DNA of 64,000 bases, taken from IMG/VR virus record IMGVR_UViG_3300020061_000004, positions 32,001 through 96,000 of that record. One strand, 5' to 3'. This document shows, piece by piece, positions 1-50,736 of this stretch. Numbering within the stretch: the stretch's first letter is position 1; every line of letters starts with the position of its first letter. The stretch comes from a virus. Position numbers and translations under genes: made by a program. The notes beneath the pieces were generated by a model that saw nothing but the letters and a program-made list of their open reading frames with translations, had not been told where the DNA came from and made no database searches.

Positions 1-37
1 AATATACAATTATAATTACAATTAATTAAACGTGTAA
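1..37 (-). promoter_or_regulatory. Class II promoter candidate (truncated) TTACA-N26-TATATT
   Basis: Runs off the window edge; shares ATTATGGTTACA with the portal promoter. Confidence 0.55.
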
Positions 38-47
38 CCATAATTGG

Positions 48-3000: not shown

Positions 3001-6000
3001 TTAATATATTTCTCATCCTGCTCAGATATAACAGCAGTAGATGAACGAGCTATTCCTGCCATTCTGTCTAGGACAGTTTTTGGAAGAAGAGCTGTAAAAC
3101 TTTCAGTAAACTGTAATCCACGATATCCCTTTAGGATAACTGATCTATCTTCATTTCCTTGACTATCTGTTCCAAAATTACCAGTATGATAGTTTTCTAC
3201 AACATTAGATTTAATAGTACCTATTTCAGTATTTACTCTGTTTATACGATTAAATTCTCTCTTAAACTCATTAAATATTATATCTTTAACCTTCTGTGTA
3301 ACTCCTGATGCTTTATACATATCAGAAAGTATAGGCAGATTAACAGTGTCACCAGTACTAGAAGCTTCAAGTACACGAATCAGATGTGGTGTTGTAACAA
3401 CAGATGTTTTACCATTTCTCTGAGTTTTTGCATATGAAGAATAGATATTCATAAAGTTGATCAAGAACTCACGTGGAGAATAGTGACCATATGTAATACC
3501 ATCTTTCTGATCTCTAAACTCAGCAGTGACTACTTTACCAGCTTTATTTGTTTCTACTGCTTTAAGACCATCTATACGATTTACTAATAGATTATCTGCA
3601 ATAGCTTCAAAATCTGGAGATTTCATTAAGAAGTTATCAGTGAGCCATTCAGAATCATAGGCATCCCTATAAGCTGTTGTAGCTTCACGATATCCCTGTT
3701 CTCTTAATTGCTTACGGAAAGCAGCATCTCTAAGTTGATAGGAGAAGTTAATATTAAATGTACCATCTTGGTGGCCATACACTATTTTATCTTCAGCATT
3801 AGTAAATGATGATTCACCTACTGTTTCATCAAATAAAGAATTACCCTTAGCGATGTTTAGAAGACGACCAATCATAGCTGTGTCTATCTCTTCATTTACT
3901 TTAGTAACTTGCTGAGTATTATCATCTATTTGTTCTACTTCCTTTAAGTCTTTGAAATAAGGGTTTGAACCACCAGTTAATAGTCTAGTGAGTTGTTCTA
4001 AATCTTCTCCATTAAGAGTAGTTTCATCAGCAGTTTTCATGATCTGAACATACTCATAATCTTGTTTATTTATGAATTTGTTCTTAGGATCATCAAACTG
4101 AAGTTCTACACCCTCTTTCTTATATTTTTCATTAAGAGCATCAAATAATCTTGCATTTTTAGAAAGTATAGAATATTTTATATACTCTGAAGATAAGCGA
4201 ATACCTACCTGTGAAAGAGTATTCTGAACTCTTGTAACATCATCGGAAAGTTTAGTTGCATCATATTTAGTAACTATTCTTTCATCAAATATACTTCTTA
4301 TATCATTTACATTGTCACGAATAGCTTTTTGAGCATCATCTGAATATTTTGCATAATTATCTCCATATTCATTAGACCACTTATCAAACTGTGTATTTTC
4401 TACATTTTTACGATTCGCAGGGTATGATTTTGTAATACTTTTCTTAACATCCACTTCATTGAAAAGATAGTCTACACGAAACTTATTAAATCCTTTTCTA
4501 ACCATTTCTACAAGGGCAGGATTAATAGTGGCTTCAAGTCTATTCTCTTCAAAAAGAGCTTGAACATTAAGTCCAGTTTCTTTAATAAACTTCTCTACAA
4601 AATGTCTACTCTGTTCATTACCATTAGAAAACATAATCATCTTCTGGAAGAACTTAATAGGATCAGTAATATTAGCTACAGAACGTAGTAGACCATAATA
4701 TACTGCCCTAGAATCAACAGTATTTACTGTAGGAACACCTTCAATAAGCTGTGAGTTTCCAAATTCATCTACTTTATCATAAGAAGTAAATCCTATATAC
4801 TGGCGTAGTAATCCTGGAAGGCTAGAAAGACCTCCTATGTTTTCAGAAGTATTATTATAACCAGTACTAGGTTGTCCTTTATCCTGTTCACTATCTTCCT
4901 TATCTTCTTCTCTAAACTGCTCAATATATTTAATAGTATTAACATATTCTATAGCTCCCTTTTTGATTATATCACGACTTTCTGGGTTGCTGTATACATA
5001 AGCCTGATCAGATGATAAAATACGATTCATTTCAGCCTCAGACTTTCCCGCATATAGAGGATTGTTAATACTATATAAACCTTGTAAGTCATCAAGTATA
5101 GTATTTAATAGAGTATCATCAGATATATTTCTATACTTGTCTAACATCCTATATGTATTATAATAAGATGCTACACTCTGAACAGTCTGAGTAGATGTTT
5201 TAGGGTCCATATTACGTTTAATAGTAATCTGGCCTTTACCCACTTGCATAACTCCCGGACGAGCAGGTATTAATGATAGAGCTATTTCTGGATTACCATA
5301 ATCTTCTTCTGGCATCTCAGTTGTAAACCTATTAGCAGCAATATCATGATATTTGTAAACACCTGTGTCAATATCTCTAAAGAGCATATCAAGGTCTTTA
5401 CCACTTTTAGAGAACCATTTGAAGAAACGACGAATAGCATCAAATAGTTTATCAAATATACCAGCAGATTCTTTCTTAGCTTTCCAACCTTGAAACTTAT
5501 CAGCCATATATTCTTCATACAGTCTATCAAGAGCTTGACTATTAGATAGTGTATTATAAAGTCCTAAGTCTCTTCTTTCCTTTAAATATTGATTAATAGA
5601 TTTACCTTCTGATTTCAGTTGGTTATAAAGTCCCTTCTGTGCCTCAGATAGATATCTATCTATTTCAGCATCACTTAATAGCATACGAAATACACCATGA
5701 AATGCTTCATGATATTCTGTACCTGCTGGAGCATCACTATTAAGATATATAACTCCATTAGAGAATGCTCCCCATACTTGTCCCTTTATAGCTATTCTAT
5801 CAAGAACTTCTGATATATCTGCCATTTTAATAAAAGAAGGAAGATTATCAGAGATATACTGACGAGCCTTTTCTACATCTAATATAGTATTCAGTTCTTT
5901 AACACCGTTCTCACCAAGTTTGAAATCAAAATCAATATCTTGATTAGCACCTTTTGGAATATCAAGATTAAGACCCATACTCTTAGCTAATTCTCTTGCA

Positions 6001-9000
6001 GACATTCCTGAAAGATTATCTAATATTTCTCCAGTTTCAGCATCTCTAAATACTGTTCCTTGTGGTGTATTACTAAACTGTACTCCTACACTTCCTAGAG
6101 CTTCATCAGCACTGGTGAATACTTTATCTTCATTAGATTCCTGATTGAAATTAGAAGTAGCCTTAGCATCTCTTATTTCTTGAGGAGACACCATTCCTAA
6201 TGGATTTCCTTGGTCATCTGTATCTACTTGTGTAAGACCACCAAAGATTCCCTTACTAGGAAGAGTAATAGGAGAAGGAGCTATCATTTCCTGCACTGGT
6301 ATACTAGGAGCAGGCATTTGAAATACTCCACTAGTAAGAGGTACTACAGAAGATATCTCAGGGTTATATACAATATTAATACCCTTTTGCTTTTCTACTG
6401 AGGTGATGTTTCCTTTGCCGTCATAAGCAATCTGAAATGGAAGAATTCCAAGTCTCTTTGGTTTTACACCAAATTCATTCTGGAAAAGGTTAGAATATGC
6501 ACTAAGTTGATTAGTATGATTCTGTCTCTTAGTCATCTTACCATTGTAAGAATCATCATACTTACCAAAATCCTTAGCTGTCTTTATATCATAAATACTA
6601 TAATTACCATCCTTATCTACCGATAGAATATCTACTTCACCAGCTATTTTACTTACTGGATCAAATAATACTATATTATTACTAATAAACTTCTCACCTC
6701 TATCTTCAATAGTTTTCTTAATTTCAGTGAGTGCTTTTATGATAGAAGTATGAGCTTCATCAGAAATACCAGCAGGTTTAGTAGCAGTTTTACCAGAAAA
6801 GAAATCTCTTACAATTCCATCTACTGTACTACCAGCAACTCTTGCATTTTCGTATAGAGAAGAGTCACCATCAAAATCATTAGGAATAACATTTGTTACT
6901 CTTCTATAGTTCTCTCCTCTAATTATATAAAACTGCTGATCTGCTGTTCTTCCTTGTACTTCTGTCTGACTAGCTATAACAGCAGCCATAATATCTTGAG
7001 AAGTCTGAAGATTTGCACCACTACTTACAGCATTCTGATTAGCAGGATTATTTCTTTCAGTACCTCCAGCTGCCTTATAGGCACTAGATATCTCTTTATA
7101 GTTAGGAGTGATACGAAGAGTACCATTCTTAAATACATTAGTAGTTGTTGCACTACTTAAAGCATTACCCGCAGCATCAGCATTAGTTTCAGAATCTTTT
7201 GCAATATTTTCACGGAACTGACTAGCAGAGAAATTAACTTTAAGTGCAGCAAATGCTGTAGCTTTATCAATTTGTTCCTGAGTCATTCCTTTCTTAACAG
7301 TACCTACTTTAACTGCTTCCTTATTGAAGAGATCAATCATCTCTCCTAAGTTCTTAATAGTAGCTACTCTTGTAGGAGCAATATATAAGGTATATCCTGC
7401 TTTAGTGTCCTTATCGTATATTTCCATACGAATTGCACCAATAGGGCTTACAGAAAGATTAAAGTTCTTTTTACCATCTGGATCAGATATAAACAGTTGA
7501 TTATCAATACCTTCATTAAAAGTATCATTATATGCTTTTGCTTCAGCATTAGGATATTTATAATAAACAACTTGATCACCAATTAATAACTGTCCATCTG
7601 CTAATTCCTTAGTAGATTCTGCAAAGTTAGTTTCTCCTGAAAGTTGTGCTCTATCTTTAAGAGAGTTAAACAATGCACTTTCAGCTTGTTCTCCTAACTG
7701 TCCAGGAGTAAGAGCTACATAATGTAAAGCTCCATCTGGTGTTTGAGTAACCCCAACATATCTTGTTCCAAGAGCATGTATTCTAGTAACGTCTCCAGCA
7801 ATTTTAGCTTTTAATTCTTTAGAATCAGCATTGTTATCATAAAAAGCAGGACTATAGATAAACTCCATAATATCAGACTTCACATATCCACCAATATCAT
7901 TATTATATACACGAGGTATAGAGATAATTACTTGTGACTGAACATCCTGTCCATTAGAACCTTTAAATACATGAGTAGTATTCTCTAATTCACTATATAA
8001 AGGTCTTTCTCCACCCGGTGGGATCAGATCAAGTTCCCCATATGTAAGTTTTACATCTACAAGTTTTTCAAGCTGTTCTTCTGATAGAGTAATAGCTTGA
8101 TTATTATTGTTCTTAAACTGTATAGCAAAATAGTTCTTCAGAGCAACCATAGCATTATACTGTTCCAAATCAGCAGCATATTGTGCAGCAGGTCTGGAAG
8201 TAAAATTAGCGTATTGTTGAGCAGTAAGTTTATCTAATGTAACTAATTGATTATTAACATTAAATAATAGTCTATCAGGAGTAGCAAGTTTTGCCACTTC
8301 ATCTCCAGTATGTAAGATAGACATATCTATAGGAGAAAGAGAAGAATATACTCCAGGATAACCTTTTAATTGTGTATATGTATTATTAGCTTTTTGATCA
8401 TTATAGGCTTGTTGACGTTCAGGAGAAAGAGGCTGTATTCTGATAGTCATATCAGCTTTAAACTCAGCTGATGTTTCATACTGTATAGCTTCTTGGAAAG
8501 GAACTTTTAAATCAGCAGGAACAAGAGCTTTATTAAAATAATCTTCTGTACGTAAAGCTTCTCTACCAGCTCCAGCACCAGCAGGTTGAGGCTGAGGAGG
8601 ACTTGGTGGTACAATAGGTTTAGAAGCCTTCTGGGAAGCAGCATTTGCAGCAGTGTTAAGAGTTACAGCCTGTGCTCTAATAGCAGCTACATTACTATTA
8701 TGTATATAGTAGTTCTTACCATCTGAGCTTTTAACTTGTGTATACTCTGAAAGGTTGACATTAGGATTTGTCATCTTAAGATCATCAACTGTAGATAGTT
8801 CATCTACATTATCAAGATCATCAGAAGCAGCTTTATCCTTTCCATCAATAACATTTAATAGAGCATTATAATATGTTCTTTTCTTCTCATCATCTAATAC
8901 TTGTGTAGACTCAGTTAATTCTCCTTGCCCTTGTTGTTGTGATGCAGCAAGACCAGTTCCTGTAGATAAACCATTAGCTTGAGCAGCCTGCTGAGCAACT

Positions 9001-31869: not shown

Positions 31870-32435
31870 TAGTTACAACATTTTTCGAGTTTCTTAATTA
31901 ATCGATCTGTCAACTTAGATGCCAATGCATAAAACTCAGTAGCTTTCTTTTCATTCTGATCTGCAATAAGATGACATCCTTCTACAAGCATGTGTATCTC
32001 AGCAAGATCATTCATTATTGTTAAGTCCTCTTTTCTTGAACAATCTGAAGCTCCTATCTTTTCATAGATAAAAGTAATTCGTTGTTCTAAGATATTAGTA
32101 CGACAAAAGCTCTTAAGTTTATAATTGAGATTGTATGGACAGATTTTATACTTTAGTCGATATACTCCATCAGGAAGATCAATAAGACAATCAGCATTCA
32201 ATAAGTCTGTAAGTCCTAAAGTATTGGAATTGAAGGTATTAACCTGATTTGCAACAATATTAACTAAGAAATACTTATTGTATCCCGGCATTAATACTTC
32301 AAGTAAGGGTCTATCAGGTTGTCCTATATATACAGAGCTATCTATGAAAACAAGAGTCTTAGGATTTCCCGTAGAAATTATTTCGAAATCTATAATATTT
32401 TCTCTAAATCCCTTCATAAATAAAAAAAGGAGCAA
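31869..32435 (-). CDS. Putative tail hub protein
   Basis: LPDGVYRLKY segment and gene position; true start may be the downstream MKGF. Confidence 0.5.
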   Translation of the reverse strand: MLLFLFMKGFRENIIDFEIISTGNPKTLVFIDSSVYIGQPDRPLLEVLMPGYNKYFLVNIVANQVNTFNSNTLGLTDLLNADCLIDLPDGVYRLKYKICPYNLNYKLKSFCRTNILEQRITFIYEKIGASDCSRKEDLTIMNDLAEIHMLVEGCHLIADQNEKKATEFYALASKLTDRLIKKLEKCCN

Positions 32436-41872: not shown

Positions 41873-43945
41873 TTACCTGGATTGTTTATTATGCTTGAAG
41901 GTGAATGTACTCTGTACCTTTCCAAATCCTTGTCCTATCCTTACAAAGGGTGAAGCAAGCATTGGATCATGTACCTTCTTAGGCATTAGAGGATCAAAGG
42001 GTTGTTCAGCTATATTACTAACAGGATAGTATTTATCCAGATGCTTAGCAAATGCTAAAGCATGCCTGAAGGCCACTATACGGTCATAGTTACCATCCTT
42101 TGGATCATACTTGATAATCTCCATTAGAAGTACAGGGTCCAGAATTCGGGTTATACCAAGCTTGTAGATGGGTTCTCTTGTAACAGGATGTGTTCCTATC
42201 TGTATCTGTTCCTTACAATATTCTATCATTAAGGACATACAGTAGTTAATATTAGCTACTGTTGGTGATAAGCCATATACTTTACCACCTTGGTTAGCTC
42301 TAGTCTTAGGATTTATTTCTCTTGCAATATTAAATCCCTGTCCAAGCATATGTCCTTTATTCTTACGCTCAAAATACTGGATGAATGTACCTGCTGCATT
42401 TTCTGGAAAGCATGTAGCATTATAATAATCCATTAACATCTCAACATCTTCATGCCAAGAATCCATTCTCTCAGGACGAGATGCCAAAGATGCCACCACC
42501 ATATTCTGATAGGTTTCACCAGATACATCTGTCATTCTCTTATAGATGAAGAGTGTCCCTAGAGAGTCAGACCAATCTGATATATCATTATTATACGGGT
42601 CGGCTCCAGCTACATAAAGCCCCATAGGAGCATTTGTAATAGGTTCTTCCCATATTACTATAGGGCAATCTGTGCCTAAGTTTCCTTTTGTTGGAAACTC
42701 TGAGATTGGTAGATCAGTAGGATCAGCATTTTTCTGAATTACCCTACCATTAGAATCTCTATATAGACGTACATAACGTCCCTTAATTTGATTAGTTTGT
42801 AAGTATTCCAGATGCTGTCTAGCTGCTTCCAAAGGGAACGGATTACTACTACCTGATAGAAAGCATTCCTCTGGTGTCAGAGGATGATACATTACAGCCT
42901 TTAAATACTCTTGTTTATCTGGGTCTTTAGACTTGATGAGTCTTTCTTCTTCTATCTTTAAGCGAGCTTTCTCTTTATCTGATACCTTAATAGGAATTGT
43001 CTTAGCTTCTAATCCAATTCCTGTAAATCCTTTTGATAAGAGATAGTCATATAGATTGGAATCAGTCTTACAATCCATTCGGTAAAGACCAGACATGAAT
43101 AAGCCAGTCTTCTTTCCTGTCTCTTCATTTACTACTTCTTGGAAGTTATTAGCTGTGGGATGTTCAAATACACGTTTAGCATCATTACCTTTCTCAAAAC
43201 TACCACCAGTACCCACTAGGATTGGAACACAACGCCAGCCGTATGGTGATAGGAACGCTGGTTTATGTGCTTCAAATACTGGTGAAAATAGATATTTACC
43301 AATTTCATCATATACTGCTGCCTTTGCTGTTGTACCAGCCGCGGCTTCTGTATTTGTACCTTCTTCTGCATTACGAATCATTATATAACTCCACACATGG
43401 TCTTCATTATTCTTGTCTTTAAAACCAAGACGTAATGTTGGCTTCCTCCAGTCTTTATCTAGTTTAGGGATAGCCAATCCTTGCCACATATGTTTCCATC
43501 CAAAATCAATCTTCTCTGTAAGAAGCTTCATGTCTGCTCCATTACCCGCTACAAGTACACTCTGTGAATTCTCATATAATATAGCTGTCATACCAATATG
43601 AGAAGCTTCCCATTCTGATTTACCTCCCTGACGTAATCCCACTTCTATATATCCCTTCTGAGCTACACGAGCTTTCTCAAAATACTCAGCACGTTCCCAT
43701 TCATTATCTCTAAGATCAGGTAGGGATGGTGTACGTACAATGTTTCCCCACTTATCCTTCTTATCCACAATAATATGCCAGTGATTCAAATGCCCATATA
43801 AAATTCCAGGAATATGAACACCACCAATAGTAATACCCCCCATGCACTTTTCAATTTCCCACTCTACAAGAGAAGTGAAATCATCAGTACCGGGAGGTGG
43901 CAAAGTTTTTATATTTCTAAAAAACTCAGTTGTTTTAATCTGCAT
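41873..43945 (-). CDS. terL: Terminase large subunit
   Basis: Walker A-like RQGGKS, Walker B VYDEIG, VGTGG coupling motif, nuclease AGADPY and NYDR. Confidence 0.92.
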   Translation of the reverse strand: MQIKTTEFFRNIKTLPPPGTDDFTSLVEWEIEKCMGGITIGGVHIPGILYGHLNHWHIIVDKKDKWGNIVRTPSLPDLRDNEWERAEYFEKARVAQKGYIEVGLRQGGKSEWEASHIGMTAILYENSQSVLVAGNGADMKLLTEKIDFGWKHMWQGLAIPKLDKDWRKPTLRLGFKDKNNEDHVWSYIMIRNAEEGTNTEAAAGTTAKAAVYDEIGKYLFSPVFEAHKPAFLSPYGWRCVPILVGTGGSFEKGNDAKRVFEHPTANNFQEVVNEETGKKTGLFMSGLYRMDCKTDSNLYDYLLSKGFTGIGLEAKTIPIKVSDKEKARLKIEEERLIKSKDPDKQEYLKAVMYHPLTPEECFLSGSSNPFPLEAARQHLEYLQTNQIKGRYVRLYRDSNGRVIQKNADPTDLPISEFPTKGNLGTDCPIVIWEEPITNAPMGLYVAGADPYNNDISDWSDSLGTLFIYKRMTDVSGETYQNMVVASLASRPERMDSWHEDVEMLMDYYNATCFPENAAGTFIQYFERKNKGHMLGQGFNIAREINPKTRANQGGKVYGLSPTVANINYCMSLMIEYCKEQIQIGTHPVTREPIYKLGITRILDPVLLMEIIKYDPKDGNYDRIVAFRHALAFAKHLDKYYPVSNIAEQPFDPLMPKKVHDPMLASPFVRIGQGFGKVQSTFTFKHNKQSR

Positions 43946-44258
43946 CTCTCTGCATTCTATGAGGAATATTAGTATTCCCTTTTGCTTCAGCCTTAGTTGC
44001 TTCTTTTTCTCTTAATTTATCTATCACTTCCAAAAGAAGAAGATAGTTCTTCATGGTATCTTGTACAGATTTAATCTGTTGTTCAATAGAAGCCACTACT
44101 GTACGCATCATACCACCATTCTTCGTCTCCTTATAGTCCATCCTATCTGTTAGTTGATCTATAGGATTGATGTCAATGTAATTACGCCATTTCTTTAATT
44201 GCTCTTCAGCCCAATCTAAATCTGATGTTATGTAACTATTAACTTTCTTTGCTGCCAT
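43935..44258 (-). CDS. Small helical protein upstream of TerL (possible small terminase)
   Basis: 107 aa, overlaps the TerL start; function inferred from position only. Confidence 0.45.
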   Translation of the reverse strand: MAAKKVNSYITSDLDWAEEQLKKWRNYIDINPIDQLTDRMDYKETKNGGMMRTVVASIEQQIKSVQDTMKNYLLLLEVIDKLREKEATKAEAKGNTNIPHRMQRDAD

Positions 44259-44724
44259 CTATTTGGTTTTGAGCACTAGGTTGGATTTGAACCAACGGTT
44301 GTACGGTTTTGCAGACCGGTGCCTTGGACCCCTCAGCCACTAGTGCAGGTTTCTGTGCGAAATCTAAATACTTTGATATTAAAATCTTATTCTTAAGAAC
44401 GTAATCAAATATCTTCTCCACTATATATCCTGTTATATATGCTCTTGTCTCACCTAGTTTCTCTACTTCAGTCTTCTCGATGATGTAGTCTACAATGTGG
44501 GACACTTCATGTACAATGCAGTTGGGAGTGAGTCCATGTAACTGATAGAAGATGAAGTATTTATGATCAGGTGTATCTAGTGATAAACCATAATAGCCTC
44601 CTTCTGCAAGAGGCTCCATACCATACTTCTTAAGATATCTTGGTACTATCTTTTCAATCTCTTCATCTATAATAATAGTGAGGTTGAACTCAAAGATAGG
44701 TATCTTTATAGTTGTCTTATACAT
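44239..44724 (-). CDS. HExxH (zincin-like) protein whose 3' end contains tRNA-Cys
   Basis: IVHEVSHIVD...ETRAY motif; frame stays open through the tRNA. Confidence 0.65.
   Translation of the reverse strand: MYKTTIKIPIFEFNLTIIIDEEIEKIVPRYLKKYGMEPLAEGGYYGLSLDTPDHKYFIFYQLHGLTPNCIVHEVSHIVDYIIEKTEVEKLGETRAYITGYIVEKIFDYVLKNKILISKYLDFAQKPALVAEGSKAPVCKTVQPLVQIQPSAQNQIDGSKES
44272..44346 (-). tRNA. trnC: tRNA-Cys (GCA)
   Basis: GCACTAG/CTAGTGC acceptor, loop CTGCAAA, T arm GTTGG TTCAAAT CCAAC, U73. Confidence 0.9.
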
Positions 44725-44734
44725 AGAAGATATT

Positions 44735-44809
44735 TGGAAGCGGGAGCGGGATTTGAACCCGCGACCTTTGAGTTATGAGCCCAACGAGCTACCTCTGCTC
44801 TACCCCGCT
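44735..44809 (-). tRNA. trnM: tRNA-Met (CAT)
   Basis: AGCGGGG/TCCCGCT acceptor, loop CTCATAA, encoded CCA. Confidence 0.9.
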
Positions 44810-44815
44810 ATATTA

Positions 44816-45043
44816 TTAATCTTCTATTTGTGTTGCCTTATCAGCTAGATCAGTCTCAAGTTCATCACGATAGTTTTCAAACTTCTTGAGAAGTTCTTCA
44901 TCACTCCAGTTATAATTACCTGTTTGGGGGCGCATCACATGCACAATATGCTGTGAGATACTATACTGGGGAAACAACTCTACTATCTCTACGAAATGAT
45001 GAAAAATCTGTTGCTTGATCTGAGTTTTTTGTTTATTGCTCAT
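44816..45043 (-). CDS. Hypothetical protein
   Basis: 75 aa, overlapping neighbour in the operon. Confidence 0.6.
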   Translation of the reverse strand: MSNKQKTQIKQQIFHHFVEIVELFPQYSISQHIVHVMRPQTGNYNWSDEELLKKFENYRDELETDLADKATQIED

Positions 45044-45461
45044 TGGTTTTTGTTTTGTATGCTGTCCATTTAAGTTCCATATTGATGTTGTTATTCTGAT
45101 TAAAGGCTAACAACTCTTTATCCTTGCAAGTACAATTTGATAAGTTATCAAAATTGCAACAATCAATTCCACAATTTGCTTCTAGTGAAGCTGTCTTTCT
45201 AGTGATTGTACATCCACACATAATACAATGTTCATCAAATCTATCTGTCTTATATCCAGTAGATACTGCATTTGAACTATTGAATGGACACGTTGCACAT
45301 ATAAATCTTCTTCTTGCTATTTCTGCTTGTTCATCTTCAGGAAGGATATCATATTGCAATTTCACTTGATTCACTATCCCCTCCACTATCAAGTCTGCAT
45401 TCTGTACTACTGTCGGCAGTAGTTTTACATATTCTATTAGTCCTTTTAGCATAAGCTTCAT
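45033..45461 (-). CDS. Cys-rich putative Zn-binding protein
   Basis: RRFICATCPF...HCIMCGC...NCGIDCC. Confidence 0.65.
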   Translation of the reverse strand: MKLMLKGLIEYVKLLPTVVQNADLIVEGIVNQVKLQYDILPEDEQAEIARRRFICATCPFNSSNAVSTGYKTDRFDEHCIMCGCTITRKTASLEANCGIDCCNFDNLSNCTCKDKELLAFNQNNNINMELKWTAYKTKTNEQ

Positions 45462-45792
45462 AATACTGTGTTGCTAATGTATTCCTCTGTATTAAGGCTT
45501 TTCTAAGTTTGCCATAGTTTACTTCGAGGAGCAGGTCTTTTGTTGATTCTTTATACCTGATAGACTTCTTTATATTCCTAATCTTATTAATTGTGGACTT
45601 TATAAAGTAGTCTATCTTACGTTTACTTGTTGTTATTGTTCCTAAGTACTTGATACTCACCGATGTAGACTCAAGGCCACTTAGTTTTTTCCTTACTTCT
45701 TTCCAATAAAAATCATTCACACTATCAACAATCTTCTCTTCTATTCCCATCTCACGGGATACTATCTTGCTGATTACTTGAATAGTTTTCAT
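45349..45792 (-). CDS. IHF/HU-like DNA-binding protein
   Basis: 147 aa. ISKIVSREMGI..VSIKYLGTI HU-like pattern. Confidence 0.6.
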   Translation of the reverse strand: MKTIQVISKIVSREMGIEEKIVDSVNDFYWKEVRKKLSGLESTSVSIKYLGTITTSKRKIDYFIKSTINKIRNIKKSIRYKESTKDLLLEVNYGKLRKALIQRNTLATQYYEAYAKRTNRICKTTADSSTECRLDSGGDSESSEIAI

Positions 45793-46133
45793 TAGCTATT
45801 ATCTATTTTAATCAGTACACCAATCACAGGATTAACAGGAAAGTCTAAGTCTGCATTAAGTGTGTAGTCTTTAGAATCTACAGGACGCACTAACATTCCA
45901 AACTTCTTAAGTTTACTCATTGTATTCTTCAGACTATCCTCTGTTTTGAGAATATTTGAAGAAAGAATAAGGTCTTTAGTTTTTCTATTAATCCTATATA
46001 CCATGAAATAAGCAAGGACTGTGAGTTCAGTATCAGAAAGTCGTATATTCTTGAGTAAACAAAAGATACCAATTACTTTCTTTGCCTGTTCCACCTTGCT
46101 ATTGGTTTTAAGTTTGATTTTTACAAGCTGCAT
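45792..46133 (-). CDS. Winged-HTH (RepL-like) protein
   Basis: LSDTELTVL...LKNTMSKLKKFGML; start moved to MQLVK (46133), downstream of the promoter. Confidence 0.5.
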   Translation of the reverse strand: MQLVKIKLKTNSKVEQAKKVIGIFCLLKNIRLSDTELTVLAYFMVYRINRKTKDLILSSNILKTEDSLKNTMSKLKKFGMLVRPVDSKDYTLNADLDFPVNPVIGVLIKIDNS

Positions 46134-46149
46134 TTCCTTAATTTCTACA

Positions 46150-46181
46150 CAAAGATAAGTAATTGATTTCAATTAACCAAA
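46150..46181 (-). promoter_or_regulatory. Bacteroidota-type promoter (HTH-IHF-terminase operon)
   Basis: TTTG-N20-TATCTTTG. Confidence 0.8.
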
Positions 46182-46190
46182 TCTTTTTCA

Positions 46191-46676
46191 CTAATTATGA
46201 TTATTTGCTGTAATTAAGTCTCTATATCTCTCATTTACAATCTTAGCCTGAGCTGATGAAGGTATTCTTCCTGATTCTAATAGGGAAAGGATACTTCTGA
46301 AGTAAGGAGCAGGGGATATTTGTAATATCTTCTTACAACGCTTCTTATATTCCTCTATAACTCCTTGTATTCTAGTGGTATCCTTTGATTTATTCTTCTT
46401 TACTCTTCTGGTTGATGAAGGTTTCTTCATGAAAGAAGCTATTGTTCTTTTCTCATGTGCTTTTGAATGACAATCTGCACAAAGAGTAACTAAAGCTTTC
46501 AAAGGATATTCCCAAGGACTCTTATCTTTGATGTAATAGAGATGATGAACATGCAACATACAATTTGTAGCCTTACAATTCCTGCATGTATACTTATCAC
46601 GGTTTAAAACCTGAACCCTAACTACATCAACCCAGCGTGTATCAAGTAATAATATTTTATATTCTTCTTTTGTCAT
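46191..46676 (-). CDS. HNH endonuclease
   Basis: RDKYTCRNC..LHVHH..LVTLCADCH; start moved to MTKEEY because the ORF-track start is at the terminator. Confidence 0.85.
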   Translation of the reverse strand: MTKEEYKILLLDTRWVDVVRVQVLNRDKYTCRNCKATNCMLHVHHLYYIKDKSPWEYPLKALVTLCADCHSKAHEKRTIASFMKKPSSTRRVKKNKSKDTTRIQGVIEEYKKRCKKILQISPAPYFRSILSLLESGRIPSSAQAKIVNERYRDLITANNHN

Positions 46677-46758
46677 AATATTCTCTGTTGAGTATGCAAT
46701 ACTACGGAAAATTATTGACATTATGCCACTTTTTTCAATATTTATTTTTATATAATAT

Positions 46759-46783
46759 AAAAACCCCTCACTTGGAGGGGCTT
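46759..46783 (-). terminator. Intrinsic terminator
   Basis: AAGCCCCTC CAAGT GAGGGGTTTTT. Confidence 0.8.
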
Positions 46784-46804
46784 GCAACAAAAGAAGGTAG
46801 CAGA

Positions 46805-46951
46805 TTAGACTTTTTTAGCATCTGCTTCGACAGTAGAAGCTACTTCTTCAACCTTTTCAATAATCGGCTCGATCTTTTCCTTGTTATTACGGTAAATTAA
46901 TATACCTGCAATGAACAAACCAAGAGATACAATAGCAACGAGTGGAACCAT
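46805..46951 (-). CDS. Small single-TM membrane protein (48 aa, not in ORF track)
   Basis: MVPLVAIVSLGLFIAGILIYRNNKEKIEPIIEKVEEVASTVEADAKKV; own promoter and terminator. Confidence 0.75.
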   Translation of the reverse strand: MVPLVAIVSLGLFIAGILIYRNNKEKIEPIIEKVEEVASTVEADAKKV

Positions 46952-46969
46952 ATGTTTCAAATTTAGATA

Positions 46970-47001
46970 CAAAGATAATAACTTCTTAGGAAATTACCAA
47001 A
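46970..47001 (-). promoter_or_regulatory. Bacteroidota-type promoter
   Basis: TTTG-N20-TATCTTTG upstream of the 48-aa membrane ORF. Confidence 0.8.
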
Positions 47002-47075
47002 TGGCACGGGAGGCTTGATTCGAACAAACATCAAAGGTTTTGGAGACCTCTATTCTACCATTGAACTACTCCCGT
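47002..47075 (-). tRNA. trnW: tRNA-Trp (CCA)
   Basis: ACGGGAG/CTCCCGT, loop CTCCAAA, encoded CCA. Confidence 0.9.
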
Positions 47076-47076
47076 A

Positions 47077-47151
47077 TGGGGTGAAAGGACGGTAATGATC
47101 CGTCTTCTATGCCTTCACAGGGCACCGCATCACCTTAATGCTTCAGACACC
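47077..47151 (-). tRNA. trnH: tRNA-His (GTG), atypical acceptor stem
   Basis: GTGCC CTGTGAA GGCAT arm, G-1:C73, CCA; three pyrimidine mismatches in the acceptor stem. Confidence 0.75.
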
Positions 47152-47161
47152 ATGTATTATG

Positions 47162-47232
47162 TACCCGATCATGGGAACGATCCACATTCTCCTGCTTCAA
47201 AGGCAGGCATAATACCTTTATACTACTCGGGT
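47162..47232 (-). tRNA. trnQ: tRNA-Gln (TTG)
   Basis: CCTGC CTTTGAA GCAGG arm; ACCCGA/TCGGGT acceptor. Confidence 0.8.
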
Positions 47233-47237
47233 ATAAG

Positions 47238-47308
47238 TTGGGGAAGATTGAATCGAACAACCACCAAAGGTGTCAGAGACCTTTGTACTACCATTATACG
47301 ATTCCCCA
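47238..47308 (-). tRNA. trnQ: tRNA-Gln (CTG)
   Basis: TGGGGAA/TTCCCCA; loop CTCTGAC. Confidence 0.88.
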
Positions 47309-47354
47309 AAATGAAGGTTCCTTACTCAATGAAGTATGCCTACAACCCAAAATG

Positions 47355-47427
47355 TGGTACAGGTTAGTTATGATCTAACTCCTCGGGATTTTCAGTCCCG
47401 CGCTTCTACCAAGTTAGCTTCTGTACC
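47355..47427 (-). tRNA. trnF: tRNA-Phe (GAA)
   Basis: GGTACAG/CTGTACC; CGGGA CTGAAAA TCCCG. Confidence 0.88.
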
Positions 47428-47432
47428 ATAAG

Positions 47433-47506
47433 AGCCCTAGCCGGAACTCGAAGCCGGTCTGTTCCGCATTACAAGTGCGGCGCTGCACCATATCAGCATC
47501 TCGGGC
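47433..47506 (-). tRNA. trnT: tRNA-Thr (TGT)
   Basis: CCGCA CTTGTAA TGCGG; GCCC/GGGC acceptor. Confidence 0.85.
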
Positions 47507-47555
47507 AGTTGACATTTGATTTTCACATAAAACAAAGTTTCCAAACAAAACATCG

Positions 47556-47656
47556 CTAATGGGGTACGATTCGAACGTACATGCAGAGGTTATTAATTCC
47601 CTATATCTGCACCACCGAGAAAAGGAGGCGAGTCTGCCAAGTTCCAACACCCATTA
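47556..47656 (-). ncRNA. 101-nt tRNA-like RNA with very long variable arm, isotype undetermined
   Basis: TAATGGG/CCCATTA acceptor, GTACG TTCGAAT CGTAC T arm, TGCAGA...TCTGCA long arm, non-canonical loop TTTTCTC. Confidence 0.7.
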
Positions 47657-47661
47657 ATCTG

Positions 47662-47733
47662 CGGGGAAGGTATGGATCGAACATACGACCTGAGAGTTAA
47701 CAGCTCCCTGCTCTACCGCTGAGCTACTTCCCC
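47662..47733 (-). tRNA. trnN: tRNA-Asn (GTT)
   Basis: GGGGAAG/CTTCCCC; loop CTGTTAA. Confidence 0.92.
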
Positions 47734-47790
47734 AAAATAGGGTGTAAGGGTTCTTCCTTACACAGGGTGCGCTTACCCCACTTCCTATTG

Positions 47791-47866
47791 CCGGCAATAC
47801 GGGATTTGAACCCGTGGTCTTCCCGTAGACAGCGGGACAGGGACAACCAGACTCCCCTAAATGCCG
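47791..47866 (-). tRNA. trnD: tRNA-Asp (GTC)
   Basis: TCCCG CTGTCTA CGGGA; G73. Confidence 0.85.
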
Positions 47867-47874
47867 AATAAAAG

Positions 47875-47945
47875 TCTAGCTTGTCTGAATCGAACAGCTC
47901 TTCATGCTTCCAAGGCACGGGTGCTACCATCACACCCCAAACTAG
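47875..47945 (-). tRNA. trnP: tRNA-Pro (TGG)
   Basis: CTAGTTT/AAGCTAG; loop CTTGGAA. Confidence 0.85.
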
Positions 47946-47977
47946 AAATAAAAAACCCTCCTTTAAGGGGAGGGCTT
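47946..47977 (-). terminator. Attenuator terminator in front of tRNA block 1
   Basis: AAGCCCTCC CCTTAAA GGAGGG TTTTTTATTT, between the promoter and the first tRNA. Confidence 0.85.
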
Positions 47978-48001
47978 GTATGAACACGCTTGAAAATTTA
48001 G

Positions 48002-48082
48002 TTATCGTGATATAATATAGCCTCTCCCAACGATTGTATCGGGTTGAAAATTAAAGGTATTATTATGCCAATTCTGAATCAT
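48002..48082 (-). CDS. Leader peptide 1 (26 aa) MIQNWHNNTFNFQPDTIVGRGYIISR
   Basis: ATG 4 nt after the -7 box; residues 3-16 are all amino acids of the downstream tRNAs. Confidence 0.85.
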   Translation of the reverse strand: MIQNWHNNTFNFQPDTIVGRGYIISR

Positions 48083-48086
48083 ACAG

Positions 48087-48118
48087 CAAAGATAAGAAGA
48101 ATATTTGATATTACCAAA
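48087..48118 (-). promoter_or_regulatory. Bacteroidota-type promoter of tRNA operon 1
   Basis: TTTG-N20-TATCTTTG. Confidence 0.85.
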
Positions 48119-48137
48119 TTTCTTATAAAAATAAATG

Positions 48138-48220
48138 TGGGAGCTGATGGAGTTGAACCACCCGAGTCCTAAGACAGCAGATTTACAGTCTGCCCCGCTA
48201 CCCCTACGGTATAAACTCCC
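48138..48220 (-). tRNA. trnY: tRNA-Tyr (GTA)
   Basis: GCAGA CTGTAAA TCTGC; long variable arm. Confidence 0.92.
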
Positions 48221-48306
48221 AAATAGCTACCCTCGGTATTTCCGAGACCAGCTTACAATATAGGGTCACTCACTTAAGAGGCTCACTAGTTTCCTAGTTA
48301 CTTTAG

Positions 48307-48393
48307 AGGAAGGTGTGGGATTTGAACCCACGGAACTTTTACATCCTCCGGTTTTCAAGACCGGTGCAATCAGCCAGACTCTGCCAACCTTCC
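48307..48393 (-). tRNA. trnS: tRNA-Ser (TGA)
   Basis: GGAAGGT/ACCTTCC; loop CTTGAAA; long variable arm. Confidence 0.92.
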
Positions 48394-48467
48394 TAAAGCT
48401 CACCCCGTAGGTGAGCAGCGCAATTAAGGCTTTGCGATGCCATTACAGCCACCCTTTGGGCAGTGTG

Positions 48468-48552
48468 AGGAGAGTAGAAGATTCGAACTTCTGGGGCTTT
48501 AACACCCAACACTTTAGCAAAGTGTTACGATAAACCTCTCTGACAACTCTCC
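48468..48552 (-). tRNA. trnS: tRNA-Ser (GCT)
   Basis: GGAGAGT/ACTCTCC; loop TTGCTAA. Confidence 0.9.
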
Positions 48553-48557
48553 TTATG

Positions 48558-48637
48558 TATCCCTAACATGATTTGAACATGCACCCCGAAGGAGCAGATT
48601 TTAAGTCTGCCGCGTCTACCAGTTTCGCCATAGAGAT
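48558..48637 (-). tRNA. trnL: tRNA-Leu (TAA)
   Basis: GCAGA CTTAAAA TCTGC; TGGTAGAC D-loop. Confidence 0.9.
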
Positions 48638-48643
48638 AAGTTG

Positions 48644-48728
48644 TAGGTATAGTAAGAGTCGAACTTACACGCCCATTACAGGCATCAGTTTCTAAGACTG
48701 ACGTGTCTACCAATTCCACCATATACCC
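48644..48728 (-). tRNA. trnL: tRNA-Leu (TAG)
   Basis: TCAGT CTTAGAA ACTGA; long variable arm. Confidence 0.92.
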
Positions 48729-48730
48729 AT

Positions 48731-48766
48731 AAAATAAAAACCCCCGCTATCCGAATTAGCAGGGGA
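48731..48766 (-). terminator. Attenuator terminator in front of tRNA block 2
   Basis: CCCCTGCTA ATTCGGA TAGCGGGGG TTTTTATTTT. Confidence 0.85.
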
Positions 48767-48808
48767 GTGACGATATTGTCTTTTACGAACGCTTCTTTAT
48801 CACATACT

Positions 48809-48871
48809 TTACCCCTTACTATCGAGTGATAGATAACTTAAGGAGAGCAAATATGAGTTTAAATTCTTCAT
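48809..48871 (-). CDS. Leader peptide 2 (20 aa) MKNLNSYLLSLSYLSLDSKG
   Basis: AATTAAA-ATG start; Leu/Ser/Tyr run matches the downstream Leu, Leu, Ser, Ser, Tyr tRNAs. An in-frame upstream ATG also exists at 48937. Confidence 0.85.
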   Translation of the reverse strand: MKNLNSYLLSLSYLSLDSKG

Positions 48872-48945
48872 TTTAATTAGGGGTCTCAGGAAAGATATAG
48901 AAACAATCGTGTGTACAATAAATCTATATCTATCCATCAACACAA

Positions 48946-48977
48946 CAAAGGTAATACAAATAATTGATATTACCAAA
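48946..48977 (-). promoter_or_regulatory. Bacteroidota-type promoter of tRNA operon 2
   Basis: TTTG-N20-TACCTTTG. Confidence 0.85.
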
Positions 48978-48985
48978 TTTAAGTG

Positions 48986-49058
48986 TAGTAATGATGGGAG
49001 TTGAACCCACTACCCCGGAGGTATCAGCTCCGTACTCTAACCGTTGAGCTACACTACT
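48986..49058 (-). tRNA. trnI: tRNA-Ile (GAT)
   Basis: CGGAG CTGATAC CTCCG. Confidence 0.9.
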
Positions 49059-49060
49059 AG

Positions 49061-49132
49061 TGGACTGAGATGGAATTGAACCATCGACTTGCACATTATG
49101 AGTGTGCTGCTCTACCCCTGAGCTATCAGTCC
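49061..49132 (-). tRNA. tRNA with CAT anticodon, probably Ile2 (lysidine) type
   Basis: GGACTGA/TCAGTCC, A73, loop CTCATAA; leader 3 contains ATA and no internal ATG. Confidence 0.85.
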
Positions 49133-49139
49133 ATAAAAG

Positions 49140-49211
49140 TACTCTGTGACGGTTACGATCCGTCTTCCACGCTTTGAAGGAGCGTTATCCTAGCCACTAG
49201 ACGAACAGAGC
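49140..49211 (-). tRNA. trnE: tRNA-Glu (TTC)
   Basis: GCTCTGTTCGTCTAG Glu-like body; ACGCT CCTTCAA AGCGT (C33). Confidence 0.85.
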
Positions 49212-49218
49212 ATATATG

Positions 49219-49290
49219 AGCACCAGTGGGTAATCGAAACCCAATCCGCGCATTGGAAGTGCGCTATAATAGCCGTTATACGACTGATGC
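49219..49290 (-). tRNA. trnG: tRNA-Gly (TCC)
   Basis: GCGCA CTTCCAA TGCGC; U73. Confidence 0.88.
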
Positions 49291-49292
49291 AT

Positions 49293-49367
49293 TGGTAGAG
49301 ATACCAAGAATCAAACTTGGGTCTAGGGATTAGAAGGCCCTCGTTCTATTCATTGAACTACATCTCT
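49293..49367 (-). tRNA. trnR: tRNA-Arg (TCT)
   Basis: Loop CTTCTAA; encoded CCA. Confidence 0.88.
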
Positions 49368-49368
49368 A

Positions 49369-49444
49369 TGGAGGACACAGAAAGAGTCAAACTTTCGTTC
49401 CCTGCTTCGTAGGCAGGAGTTCTATTCAGCTGAACTATGCGTCC
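49369..49444 (-). tRNA. trnR: tRNA-Arg (ACG)
   Basis: CCTGC CTACGAA GCAGG; encoded CCA. Confidence 0.88.
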
Positions 49445-49515
49445 TAATACTGGGCCAGAGTATACAGGTTACTGTCCCTCTATGAATTTCACATAGTTAC
49501 CCCAGTAGAATACTG

Positions 49516-49588
49516 TCTCCCCGTTCGGAATCGAACCGAACCCCACGGTTTAAAAGACCGTTGCCTACAACCAGTTTGCTACAAGGAG
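49516..49588 (-). tRNA. trnK: tRNA-Lys (TTT)
   Basis: ACGGT CTTTTAA ACCGT; T arm TTCGG TTCGATT CCGAA. Confidence 0.88.
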
Positions 49589-49593
49589 TTTGT

Positions 49594-49633
49594 AAAAACA
49601 AAAACCCGAAGCTGCTAGTTGCGGCTCCGGGCT
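49594..49633 (-). terminator. Attenuator terminator in front of tRNA block 3
   Basis: CCCGGAGCCGC AACTA GCAGCTTCGGG TTTTTGTTTTT. Confidence 0.85.
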
Positions 49634-49655
49634 CTGTTAAAAGAAATTGTTAGTA

Positions 49656-49757
49656 TTATCCTAAATCAATATCTTGTAGACATATAGCTCCGGAGCCAGG
49701 TTTTCTTCCTGCCTCGCGAATAATTTCTATGCCACCGATATTGATAACTAAATTCAT
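49656..49757 (-). CDS. Leader peptide 3 (33 aa) MNLVINIGGIEIIREAGRKPGSGAICLQDIDLG
   Basis: ATG 4 nt after the -7 box; Ile/Gly/Glu/Arg/Lys run matches the downstream tRNAs. Confidence 0.85.
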   Translation of the reverse strand: MNLVINIGGIEIIREAGRKPGSGAICLQDIDLG

Positions 49758-49761
49758 AATG

Positions 49762-49793
49762 CAAAGATATGTTAAATATTTGAAACTACCAAA
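49762..49793 (-). promoter_or_regulatory. Bacteroidota-type promoter of tRNA operon 3
   Basis: TTTG-N20-TATCTTTG. Confidence 0.85.
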
Positions 49794-50026
49794 TCTTGTT
49801 TTAAAAAGGCTATTACTTCTTTAAGTTCTTGTTCAGGAGTAGATGGCCTTATCATAAATTCTCTTTCCCGATTTGTTACCATATATCCAAAAACATTTGA
49901 GGATGCTAGGAAACCCTTTGAAATATTAAGAAATGATGGAAGGTGTGTTCCAGACATAAATCCATAATCTCCTCTACTATGAGAGAGTCCTGTCTCCTTA
50001 TCTATATAAGCTAATACAGCATTCAT
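49772..50026 (-). CDS. Hypothetical protein
   Basis: 84 aa; coupled stop/start. Confidence 0.6.
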   Translation of the reverse strand: MNAVLAYIDKETGLSHSRGDYGFMSGTHLPSFLNISKGFLASSNVFGYMVTNREREFMIRPSTPEQELKEVIAFLKQDLVVSNI

Positions 50027-50310
50027 TATACAAAGATTAAACTACACAATGCTTTTGATATCCATACAATCTCACCTTTAACTGGTTCTTGATCAATCTC
50101 AATAGATATATGAGTGCCATCAATCCCTGCAAACTCTCCATTATCTAAGGGTGTCATATTCCAATGGCTTATCTCACGTTTATCATTGAGGATGGTATAA
50201 TAGCTACCATCCTCTTTTATTAATCTTATGCCGGGACAGAGATATTTCTTTGGAATATATCTATCCCTCCAATCTCCCTGTATCATCAGAGTCACTCGTG
50301 TGGGTCTCAT
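50026..50310 (-). CDS. Hypothetical protein
   Basis: 94 aa in the operon. Confidence 0.6.
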   Translation of the reverse strand: MRPTRVTLMIQGDWRDRYIPKKYLCPGIRLIKEDGSYYTILNDKREISHWNMTPLDNGEFAGIDGTHISIEIDQEPVKGEIVWISKALCSLIFV

Positions 50311-50334
50311 AACTAAAAAAAATTCGTTCGTACG

Positions 50335-50736
50335 TTAACTCAAATTATCACTATCCATACCAAGCCCGAAATCATCAATCGAATCTGGTTTGATGATAGT
50401 GTCATTAGACGCGCCTTCTCCAGATTTTTCTGTTATGAATCCGTGTATACTATACCCTGTAGCGGCTGTATAGATACGCTGAAACTCACTATAAGGCAAT
50501 GCCACTACAAAACTATCCCCGTCCTTAAAACGCACCGTTGTCGATTTTTTATCCTGGCTACGATTGAATCGAGAGATATCATTGATATCAAACGTCATAG
50601 GAGCATAGTCATAAAAGAACTCTGGTTGGAAGTTGTTCTGCTCTTCACCACTCAGAAGCTTCTTTAGTTGAAGTTCCTGATCGTCCTCTTTCTTAACACG
50701 CATCTCTGTCCATCTCACCTGCATTTCTACTATCAT
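50335..50736 (-). CDS. Hypothetical protein
   Basis: 133 aa in the operon. Confidence 0.65.
   Translation of the reverse strand: MIVEMQVRWTEMRVKKEDDQELQLKKLLSGEEQNNFQPEFFYDYAPMTFDINDISRFNRSQDKKSTTVRFKDGDSFVVALPYSEFQRIYTAATGYSIHGFITEKSGEGASNDTIIKPDSIDDFGLGMDSDNLS

Follow-up and report, generated by a model that had tools for sequence, protein, structure and literature searches.

A putative leader-peptide attenuator in front of the Leu/Ser/Tyr tRNA operon of a phage from soil metagenomes

The DNA analyzed here, a stretch of 64,000 nucleotides hereafter called the window, comprises positions 32,001 to 96,000 of the virus record IMGVR_UViG_3300020061_000004, whose contig has a length of 123,280 bp and a G+C content of 35.6%. 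Three public DNA runs containing the stretch or part of it are soil metagenomes; a fourth run, whose kind and organism are unrecorded, contains a small share (0.17). No RNA run is among those listed for the sequence. The gene for the large terminase (41873-43945) lies downstream of the region described below. Its relatives belong to uncultured phages and to phages of Flavobacterium, Cellulophaga and Bacteroides, and the best match to a cultured phage is the terminase of the Leptolyngbya phage Lbo-JY46 (44.7% identity). A DNA search of a 301-nt region against GenBank phages gave no match. By use of ARAGORN, 22 tRNAs were called, all of which reside within one region on the minus strand of the window. 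An additional tRNA-His (gtg) gene at 47080-47150 (minus strand) was missed by ARAGORN at default settings but detected by Rfam (31.4 bits) and by ARAGORN at a relaxed threshold; with this gene the match between the third leader of the region and its tRNA block is complete. A tRNA-Cys gene (44271-44346, minus strand) is located within the last codons of an ORF of 161 codons on the same strand (44239-44724) and has no leader/terminator unit of its own.

Five of the tRNA genes, specific for Leu, Ser and Tyr, form a block that is preceded on the minus strand by a promoter-like site, a 20-codon ORF and an intrinsic terminator, in this order (Table 1). Rfam recognized four of the five genes as tRNA; the Tyr gene appeared there only below the gathering cut-off, as tRNA-Sec with 34 bits. 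The tRNAs of the block measure 81-88 nt (n=5). Since all 17 other tRNAs called by ARAGORN are only 72-77 nt long, the long-arm tRNAs are grouped in this one block. The terminator stem consists of nine pairs (six G-C) with a loop of 7 nt and is followed by a T-run, from which the first tRNA (48728) is separated by 2 nt. The stop codon of the ORF (48811-48809) sits inside region 2. An initial annotation, made from the sequence alone, had described 11 straight Leu/Ser/Tyr codons at residues 6-16 of the leader, the presence of all long-arm tRNAs in a single operon, and an extra 5′ hairpin at about 48935-48889 with an in-frame ATG at its base. All three statements held.

Table 1. Features of the Leu/Ser/Tyr unit (window coordinates)
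Feature	Position	Strand	Basis or remark
Promoter-like site, Bacteroidota type (TTTG box, spacer, TAnnTTTG box)	48946-48977	-	Motif scan
Upstream ATG in the leader frame	48935-48937	-	Spaced 8 nt from the -7 box; the hairpin opens with its G
5′ hairpin	48889-48935	-	Outer stem of 12 pairs around a T-T mismatch and inner stem of 5 pairs
Leader ORF, 20 codons plus stop (ATG to TAA)	48809-48871	-	Preceded by an A-rich stretch
Regulatory run, codons 6-16, 11 consecutive Leu/Ser/Tyr codons	48824-48856	-	
Region 1 (5′ strand of the protector hairpin, inside the run)	48856-48851 and 48845-48839	-	Constrained folds
Region 2 (last leader codons, stop and 12 nt beyond)	48799-48825	-	Partner is region 1 or region 3
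Region 3 (antiterminator partner of region 2)	48751-48771	-	Includes the terminator 5′ arm 48765-48757
Intrinsic terminator	48731-48765	-	Hairpin 48765-48741 and T-run 48740-48731
tRNA block behind the terminator, Leu(tag), Leu(taa), Ser(gct), Ser(tga), Tyr(gta)	48137-48728	-	ARAGORN, Rfam
tRNA-Leu(tag)	48728-48643	-	ARAGORN
tRNA-Leu(taa)	48637-48557	-	ARAGORN
tRNA-Ser(gct)	48552-48467	-	ARAGORN
tRNA-Ser(tga)	48393-48306	-	ARAGORN
tRNA-Tyr(gta)	48220-48137	-	ARAGORN

The promoter-like site belongs to a motif (TTTGG box, 16-20 nt, TAnnTTTG box) which we take to be the Bacteroidota housekeeping promoter consensus. It was found eight times in the window compared to 0.35 expected occurrences, always on the minus strand. 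One copy precedes each of the three leaders of the region (49793-49762, 48977-48946 and 48118-48087) and another is situated just past the last tRNA. The motif scan of the window disclosed no such site between the terminator and the tRNAs of the Leu/Ser/Tyr block, the next one beyond the block being that at 48118-48087. As just 2 nt part the T-run from tRNA-Leu, it can be inferred that the block is transcribed only by read-through of the terminator. In six of nine units from the window and two related loci (L001 and L002), a gap of only 4 nt separates the -7 box from the leader ATG, a spacing that possibly points to leaderless mRNAs; this is inferred from the sequence and from an assumed position of the start site. 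The Leu/Ser/Tyr unit differs in this respect, as an in-frame ATG follows 8 nt after the box and the leader ATG another 66 nt downstream (74 nt after the box), past the A-rich stretch. Use of the upstream ATG would give an ORF of 42 codons, and from either ATG the Leu/Ser/Tyr run is read in frame.

The composition of the leaders was compared with a background of 1025 first-ATG ORFs of 15-45 codons, collected from the six frames of nine loci. A Leu/Ser/Tyr run of at least 11 codons occurred in none of these short ORFs (0/1025). For the other two units of the window, the longest runs of codons belonging to the set of their own block amounted to 14 (0/1025) and 9 codons (1/1025). Matched against its own block, each leader of the window thus exhibits an in-set run of 9, 11 or 14 codons, whereas runs of only 1-3 codons resulted with the other two blocks. 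At the level of single codons no such excess was observed. In the run of the Leu/Ser/Tyr unit 8/11 codons are strictly read by the tRNAs of the block, compared to 7.4 expected from the codon usage of the phage, and over 19 units the ratio was 182/228 versus 172.9. The three remaining codons of the run (two CTC, one TCC) require four-way wobble or a host tRNA. Because codon matching fits codon usage, the agreement between leader and tRNAs resides at the level of the amino acid or tRNA family, and isoacceptor-level matching was rejected as additional evidence. The claim of the initial annotation that the leader contains codons read by the five downstream tRNAs held descriptively, each of the five anticodons having a strictly cognate codon (5/5), but as a codon-to-isoacceptor match it held only in part, not exceeding codon usage.

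The ability of the transcript to adopt alternative structures was studied by constrained folding. The RNA was folded up to the terminator loop, and the ribosome was represented by an unpaired mask that extended 15 nt upstream and 13 nt downstream of the first base of the codon in the A site. For A-site positions at codons 3-13, the terminator 5′ arm was predicted to be paired upstream over its full length (9/9). On codon 14 this value dropped to 5/9 and on codons 15-19 to 0/9, while the last sense codon and the stop codon each gave 4/9. In the absence of a ribosome the arm was not paired upstream at all (0/9); positions 48856-48851 and 48845-48839 of the run paired with region 2 instead. The antiterminator, in which 48825-48812 and 48803-48799 are joined to 48771-48751, has a folding energy of -14.9 kcal/mol (truncated transcript, ribosome on codons 7-11). 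It includes the pairing of 48821-48812 with 48765-48757 that had been proposed beforehand and was now recovered by folding with nine pairs, a 1-nt bulge and one G-U, as part of the longer structure. Since the stop codon sits within region 2, a ribosome terminating there would cover this region. Dinucleotide shuffling of the upstream part (n=250) never reproduced the switch pattern. We regard the masked-ribosome folds as a classical attenuator switch, in which antiterminator and terminator are mutually exclusive and set by the position of the ribosome, though only in silico and by means of a crude folding model.

Similar calculations were carried out with other units. In nine of them the contrast between a ribosome stalled in the run and one further on was compared with shuffles (L054 B was left out as its terminator could not be located); in eight units only 0-3 of 80 shuffles attained it, in the ninth 8/80. 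Across 16 modelled units, the arm in the state without a ribosome was sequestered in nine, free in six and intermediate in one. L013 Ua and L040 were not part of this series because their terminators had not been located; L040 was modelled separately. The prediction for a ribosome at the stop codon differed from unit to unit.

Two scans of viral contigs with the terminase yielded 53 loci. Twelve of them had at least three plus-strand tRNAs in the fetched flank, and the remaining 41, which lacked a tRNA array there, were excluded. Three apparent duplicates (L003, L005 and L014, sharing the tRNA pattern of L001, L004 and L013) were removed, although their status as near-duplicates was not fully checked. 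Together with the added phage Lbo-JY46 (PP438436.1, L054) the scored set comprised 21 units of 10 genomes. Relaxed ARAGORN thresholds produced many spurious hits, of which only those on the plus strand in gaps of the arrays were kept, and two tRNAs of L001 (Lys, Gln) were assigned via alignment to called homologues.

In 14/18 units, no background ORF (0/1025) contained an in-set run as long as that of the leader. Moreover, when the tRNA sets were permuted among the 21 units, none of 10000 permutations reached the observed summed run of 231 (permuted mean 83, maximum 171). The Leu/Ser/Tyr unit itself was also identified in L001, L002, L004, L038 and Lbo-JY46, with runs of 7-11 codons and zero or one match in the background. 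Genomes with other groupings of tRNAs are the informative cases, because the leaders there follow the grouping. In L040, which has tRNAs for Pro, Gln and His, the leader contains a run of six codons for only those three amino acids. The set of L009 (Ala, Gly, Asp, Asn, Trp, Thr, Arg, Phe, Cys) is matched by a run of 17 codons in which all nine are present, and in L013, with tRNAs for 13 amino acids, all 13 are represented in a run of 23. L038 and Lbo-JY46, with tRNAs for Pro, Thr, Phe, Gln, His, Arg and Trp, showed runs of 12 and 11 codons, respectively.

A comparison of L001 and L002 revealed how the leaders diverge. Within the block-3 run (codons 10-17), substitutions replace one member of the set by a different member, whereas codons further on vary freely. 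As the substitutions stay in the set, we conclude that selection acts on set membership and not on the peptide sequence. The block-2 leaders of the two genomes differ by four synonymous and three non-synonymous changes. One of the latter is situated in the strand pairing with the terminator arm, which differs as well, so that the pairing strand of the ORF and the arm have changed in step. A multiple alignment of the six Leu/Ser/Tyr leaders was too divergent (51% mean column identity) for counting covariation; for this reason folds constrained for each sequence were used.

Some units did not conform. In L039, a leader of the Pro/Gln/His/Arg/Leu/Ser/Tyr type is followed by no tRNAs other than a Pro-like one, one for Val and one for Gly; its in-set run of one codon was equalled by 946/1025 background ORFs. 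The terminator of this locus (6230-6660) is intact, and the array appears to be decayed or rearranged. Leader A of Lbo-JY46 was matched by 394 of 1121 background ORFs with a narrow tRNA set and by 9 with a wide one, and hence fits only when tRNAs past intervening genes are included. Unit Ua of L009 is weak (14/1025). Furthermore, a leader is lacking for the Met and Cys tRNA genes of the window, for the Ile/Ile/Ala clusters in L004 and L038, and for those in L006 and L052.

Several other properties of the arrays were recorded. Between tRNA-Asn and tRNA-Thr the window harbors a tRNA-like sequence of approximately 100 nt with a very long extra arm (47507-47660, minus strand), whose position is kept in two relatives (L001 6185-6300; L002 6191-6286). 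The L002 copy was called by ARAGORN as a 96-nt 'Asp' tRNA, but its identity is unknown. Block 1 ends with Val(tac) and Ala(tgc) tRNAs in relatives (L001 5008-5161; L002 4716-4862). ARAGORN found neither of them in the genome studied here (window 48985-49757, minus strand); leader 1 of the window nevertheless keeps Ala codons and a single Val codon. In L013 (1372-1572), L038 (5531-5644) and L040 (185-313), promoter and tRNA leader are separated by a small hydrophobic ORF (37-66 codons), and Cys-rich, zinc-finger-like ORFs are found inside the tRNA arrays of L002 (4866-5012) and L038 (6780-7110), the latter with a promoter-like site of its own. Within 8.4 kb of Lbo-JY46 (positions 1-8400) there are six promoter-like sites of the type TTTGG...TAnnTTTG. 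The recorded host of this phage is a cyanobacterium, yet the terminase relatives are phages of Bacteroidota, and the host assignment may merit re-examination. No paper on Lbo-JY46 was found in the literature searched.

The 5′ hairpin of the Leu/Ser/Tyr unit has a folding energy of -17.0 kcal/mol. No further copy was detected in the 123-kb genome, and the five homologous Leu/Ser/Tyr leaders lack a counterpart. Being unique in the genome and absent from relatives, it was rejected as a repeated element or conserved module. We interpret it as a lineage-specific insertion, which, judging from the sequence, likely masks the first ATG or stabilizes the 5′ end. With the long 5′ region included, a near-isoenergetic fold was obtained in which a C-rich box just past the hairpin pairs with region 2. 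According to this thermodynamic model of one sequence, such a fold would compete with the antiterminator if the upstream ATG were used. No comparative evidence backs the suggestion of the initial annotation that the hairpin may act as a second control layer; such a role is neither supported nor excluded.

Based on these results, we think it likely (probability about 0.78) that the unit is a ribosome-mediated, leader-peptide transcription attenuator gating a phage tRNA operon, though it has not been tested at the bench. Anatomy and conservation are shown, as is the co-variation between leaders and tRNA sets, whereas the alternative pairings are predicted by a model. A short ORF with start and stop codon is present between promoter and regulated genes, it contains a cluster of cognate codons (11 codons; 5/5 anticodons represented), an intrinsic terminator separates it from the tRNAs, and in the folding model a protector (1:2) hairpin leaves the arm free without a ribosome. 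The attenuator reading put forward initially is thus supported, as all requirements at the sequence level are met, the design is conserved and the composition of the leaders tracks the tRNA content.

Leader translation, stalling, regulated read-through and whatever causes the shortage are inferred; no expression or translation data exist for the phage. In the proposed mechanism, the host RNA polymerase would start at the Bacteroidota-type promoter and a ribosome would translate the 20-codon leader. If Leu, Ser and Tyr codons are decoded fast, the ribosome would reach the end of the ORF and cover region 2 with the stop codon, whereupon the terminator hairpin would form and transcription would stop 2 nt ahead of tRNA-Leu. 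A ribosome stalled in the first two thirds of the run would cover region 1 and leave region 2 free to pair with the terminator 5′ arm, allowing the polymerase to enter the five tRNA genes. Without any ribosome, regions 1 and 2 would pair with each other and the terminator would form. In this way the supply of Leu, Ser and Tyr tRNAs may be replenished by the phage whenever an infected cell has too few of them. Because the products are tRNAs for the very codons being polled, the circuit would exert negative feedback on decoding capacity.

Leader-peptide attenuators are well known from amino-acid operons, for instance trpL, hisL, leuL and pheL, and the multivalent leaders thrL and that of ilvGMEDA. 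The phage unit resembles them in its short promoter-proximal ORF with a run of regulatory codons, in the four RNA regions forming protector, antiterminator and terminator hairpins, and in a stop codon positioned so that the terminating ribosome covers region 2, a geometry known from the trp attenuator. It differs from them in that tRNAs and not enzymes are regulated, that three amino acids are sensed (up to 13 in a relative), and that Bacteroidota-type promoters are used, with the 4-nt gap in 6/9 phage units suggesting leaderless mRNAs. Neither does it match an Rfam leader family: searches of 43500-50500 with the curated models (Leu, His, Thr, Trp leaders and others) and with the T-box riboswitch model gave no match at E up to 1. 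The attenuator of E. coli pheST with its pheM leader is similar in that leader-peptide attenuation acts on a part of the translation machinery that serves the same amino acid, but it controls an aminoacyl-tRNA synthetase, senses one amino acid and is cellular. T-box riboswitches likewise link the choice between terminator and antiterminator to the state of a specific tRNA; they bind the uncharged tRNA directly, without translation, via conserved stem I and T-box sequences. In Anabaena, the trn operon forms a silent tRNA array that is switched on by translational stress (PMC8421152, PMC10272220). As proposed for the phage units, it is an accessory array expressed when translation is impaired, but it is controlled by the transcriptional repressor TrcR (PMC10272220), and the terms 'attenuat' and 'leader peptide' do not occur in either paper. 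PMC3082878 contains a passage on supercoiling and a tRNA operon of the host. Leader-peptide attenuation of tRNA genes was not found in the literature searched, which did not cover most subscription journals, so that its absence remains unproven.

Among the alternatives, the closest is the same attenuator with a different signal, namely amino-acid supply perceived through uncharged tRNA in starvation and not tRNA abundance. The phage would then respond to Leu, Ser or Tyr starvation of the host. Classical attenuators sense charging, and the match between leader and tRNA block exists at the amino-acid level, with codon matching not above codon usage. However, the leaders follow the tRNA content of the block in every grouping seen, and sensing of starvation would be poor logic, because extra tRNA cannot relieve a lack of amino acid. 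We infer from this that the alternative is unlikely. Direct binding of tRNAs by a ribosome-independent RNA sensor, in the manner of a T-box, could likewise explain a terminator/antiterminator pair upstream of translation-related genes. It is nevertheless most improbable, since the RNA sequence diverges without loss of start codon, reading frame or stop codon, and no Rfam family, T-box included, matches 48731-48977 at E up to 1. The only Rfam overlap with this segment was a sub-threshold tRNA-like match at 48965-49052, which is tRNA-Ile.

It might also be argued that the ORF is incidental and that a leaky or constitutive terminator merely ends the upstream tRNA operon or fixes a low tRNA level. 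There are indeed no expression data and no terminator between tRNA-Ile (48985) and the Leu/Ser/Tyr promoter, and it follows from the latter that block 1 transcripts also end at the 48765-48731 terminator. However, this terminator lies downstream and not upstream of the promoter and the ORF, the run has no equal in the background ORFs (0/1025), the leader/tRNA-set co-variation was reached by 0/10000 permutations, and the switch pattern was missing in 250/250 shuffles. We consider this possibility very remote. Even less plausible is a functional small peptide whose composition has been selected for its own activity. The ORF has been kept as an ORF in six genomes, and the first 21 residues of the Leu/Ser/Tyr leader are identical in L001 and L002. 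On the other hand, other leaders scramble the order of residues and keep only set membership (block 3, L001 versus L002), the composition follows the adjoining tRNAs, and no hydrophobic or other motif is held in common.

Going beyond the attenuator reading, each tRNA block of this phage lineage may be a closed-loop 'tRNA-stat', in which the transcription of the block is set by the speed of ribosomes on a test ORF composed of codons for those amino acids that the block serves. We put this forward tentatively, as the balance still tips slightly against it. If true, it would allow the phage to detect and repair the loss of specific tRNAs in the infected cell, which could be brought about by host anticodon nucleases, phage-induced decay of host tRNAs or codon-usage mismatch, and tRNA genes would for the first time be seen to respond to the decoding activity of what they encode. 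As the same units are present in the cultured relative Lbo-JY46 (PP438436.1), the attenuator idea can be examined at the bench.

The reasons for the presence of tRNAs in phages, and the ways in which they are controlled, are still under debate. If the leader-peptide attenuator proposed here does act on tRNA operons, a textbook mechanism would gain a new class of targets and would include sensors that monitor many amino acids simultaneously, and regulated tRNA arrays would have a genomic signature, a leader whose composition equals the downstream tRNA content. The supply of phage tRNAs would then be demand-driven and not constitutive.
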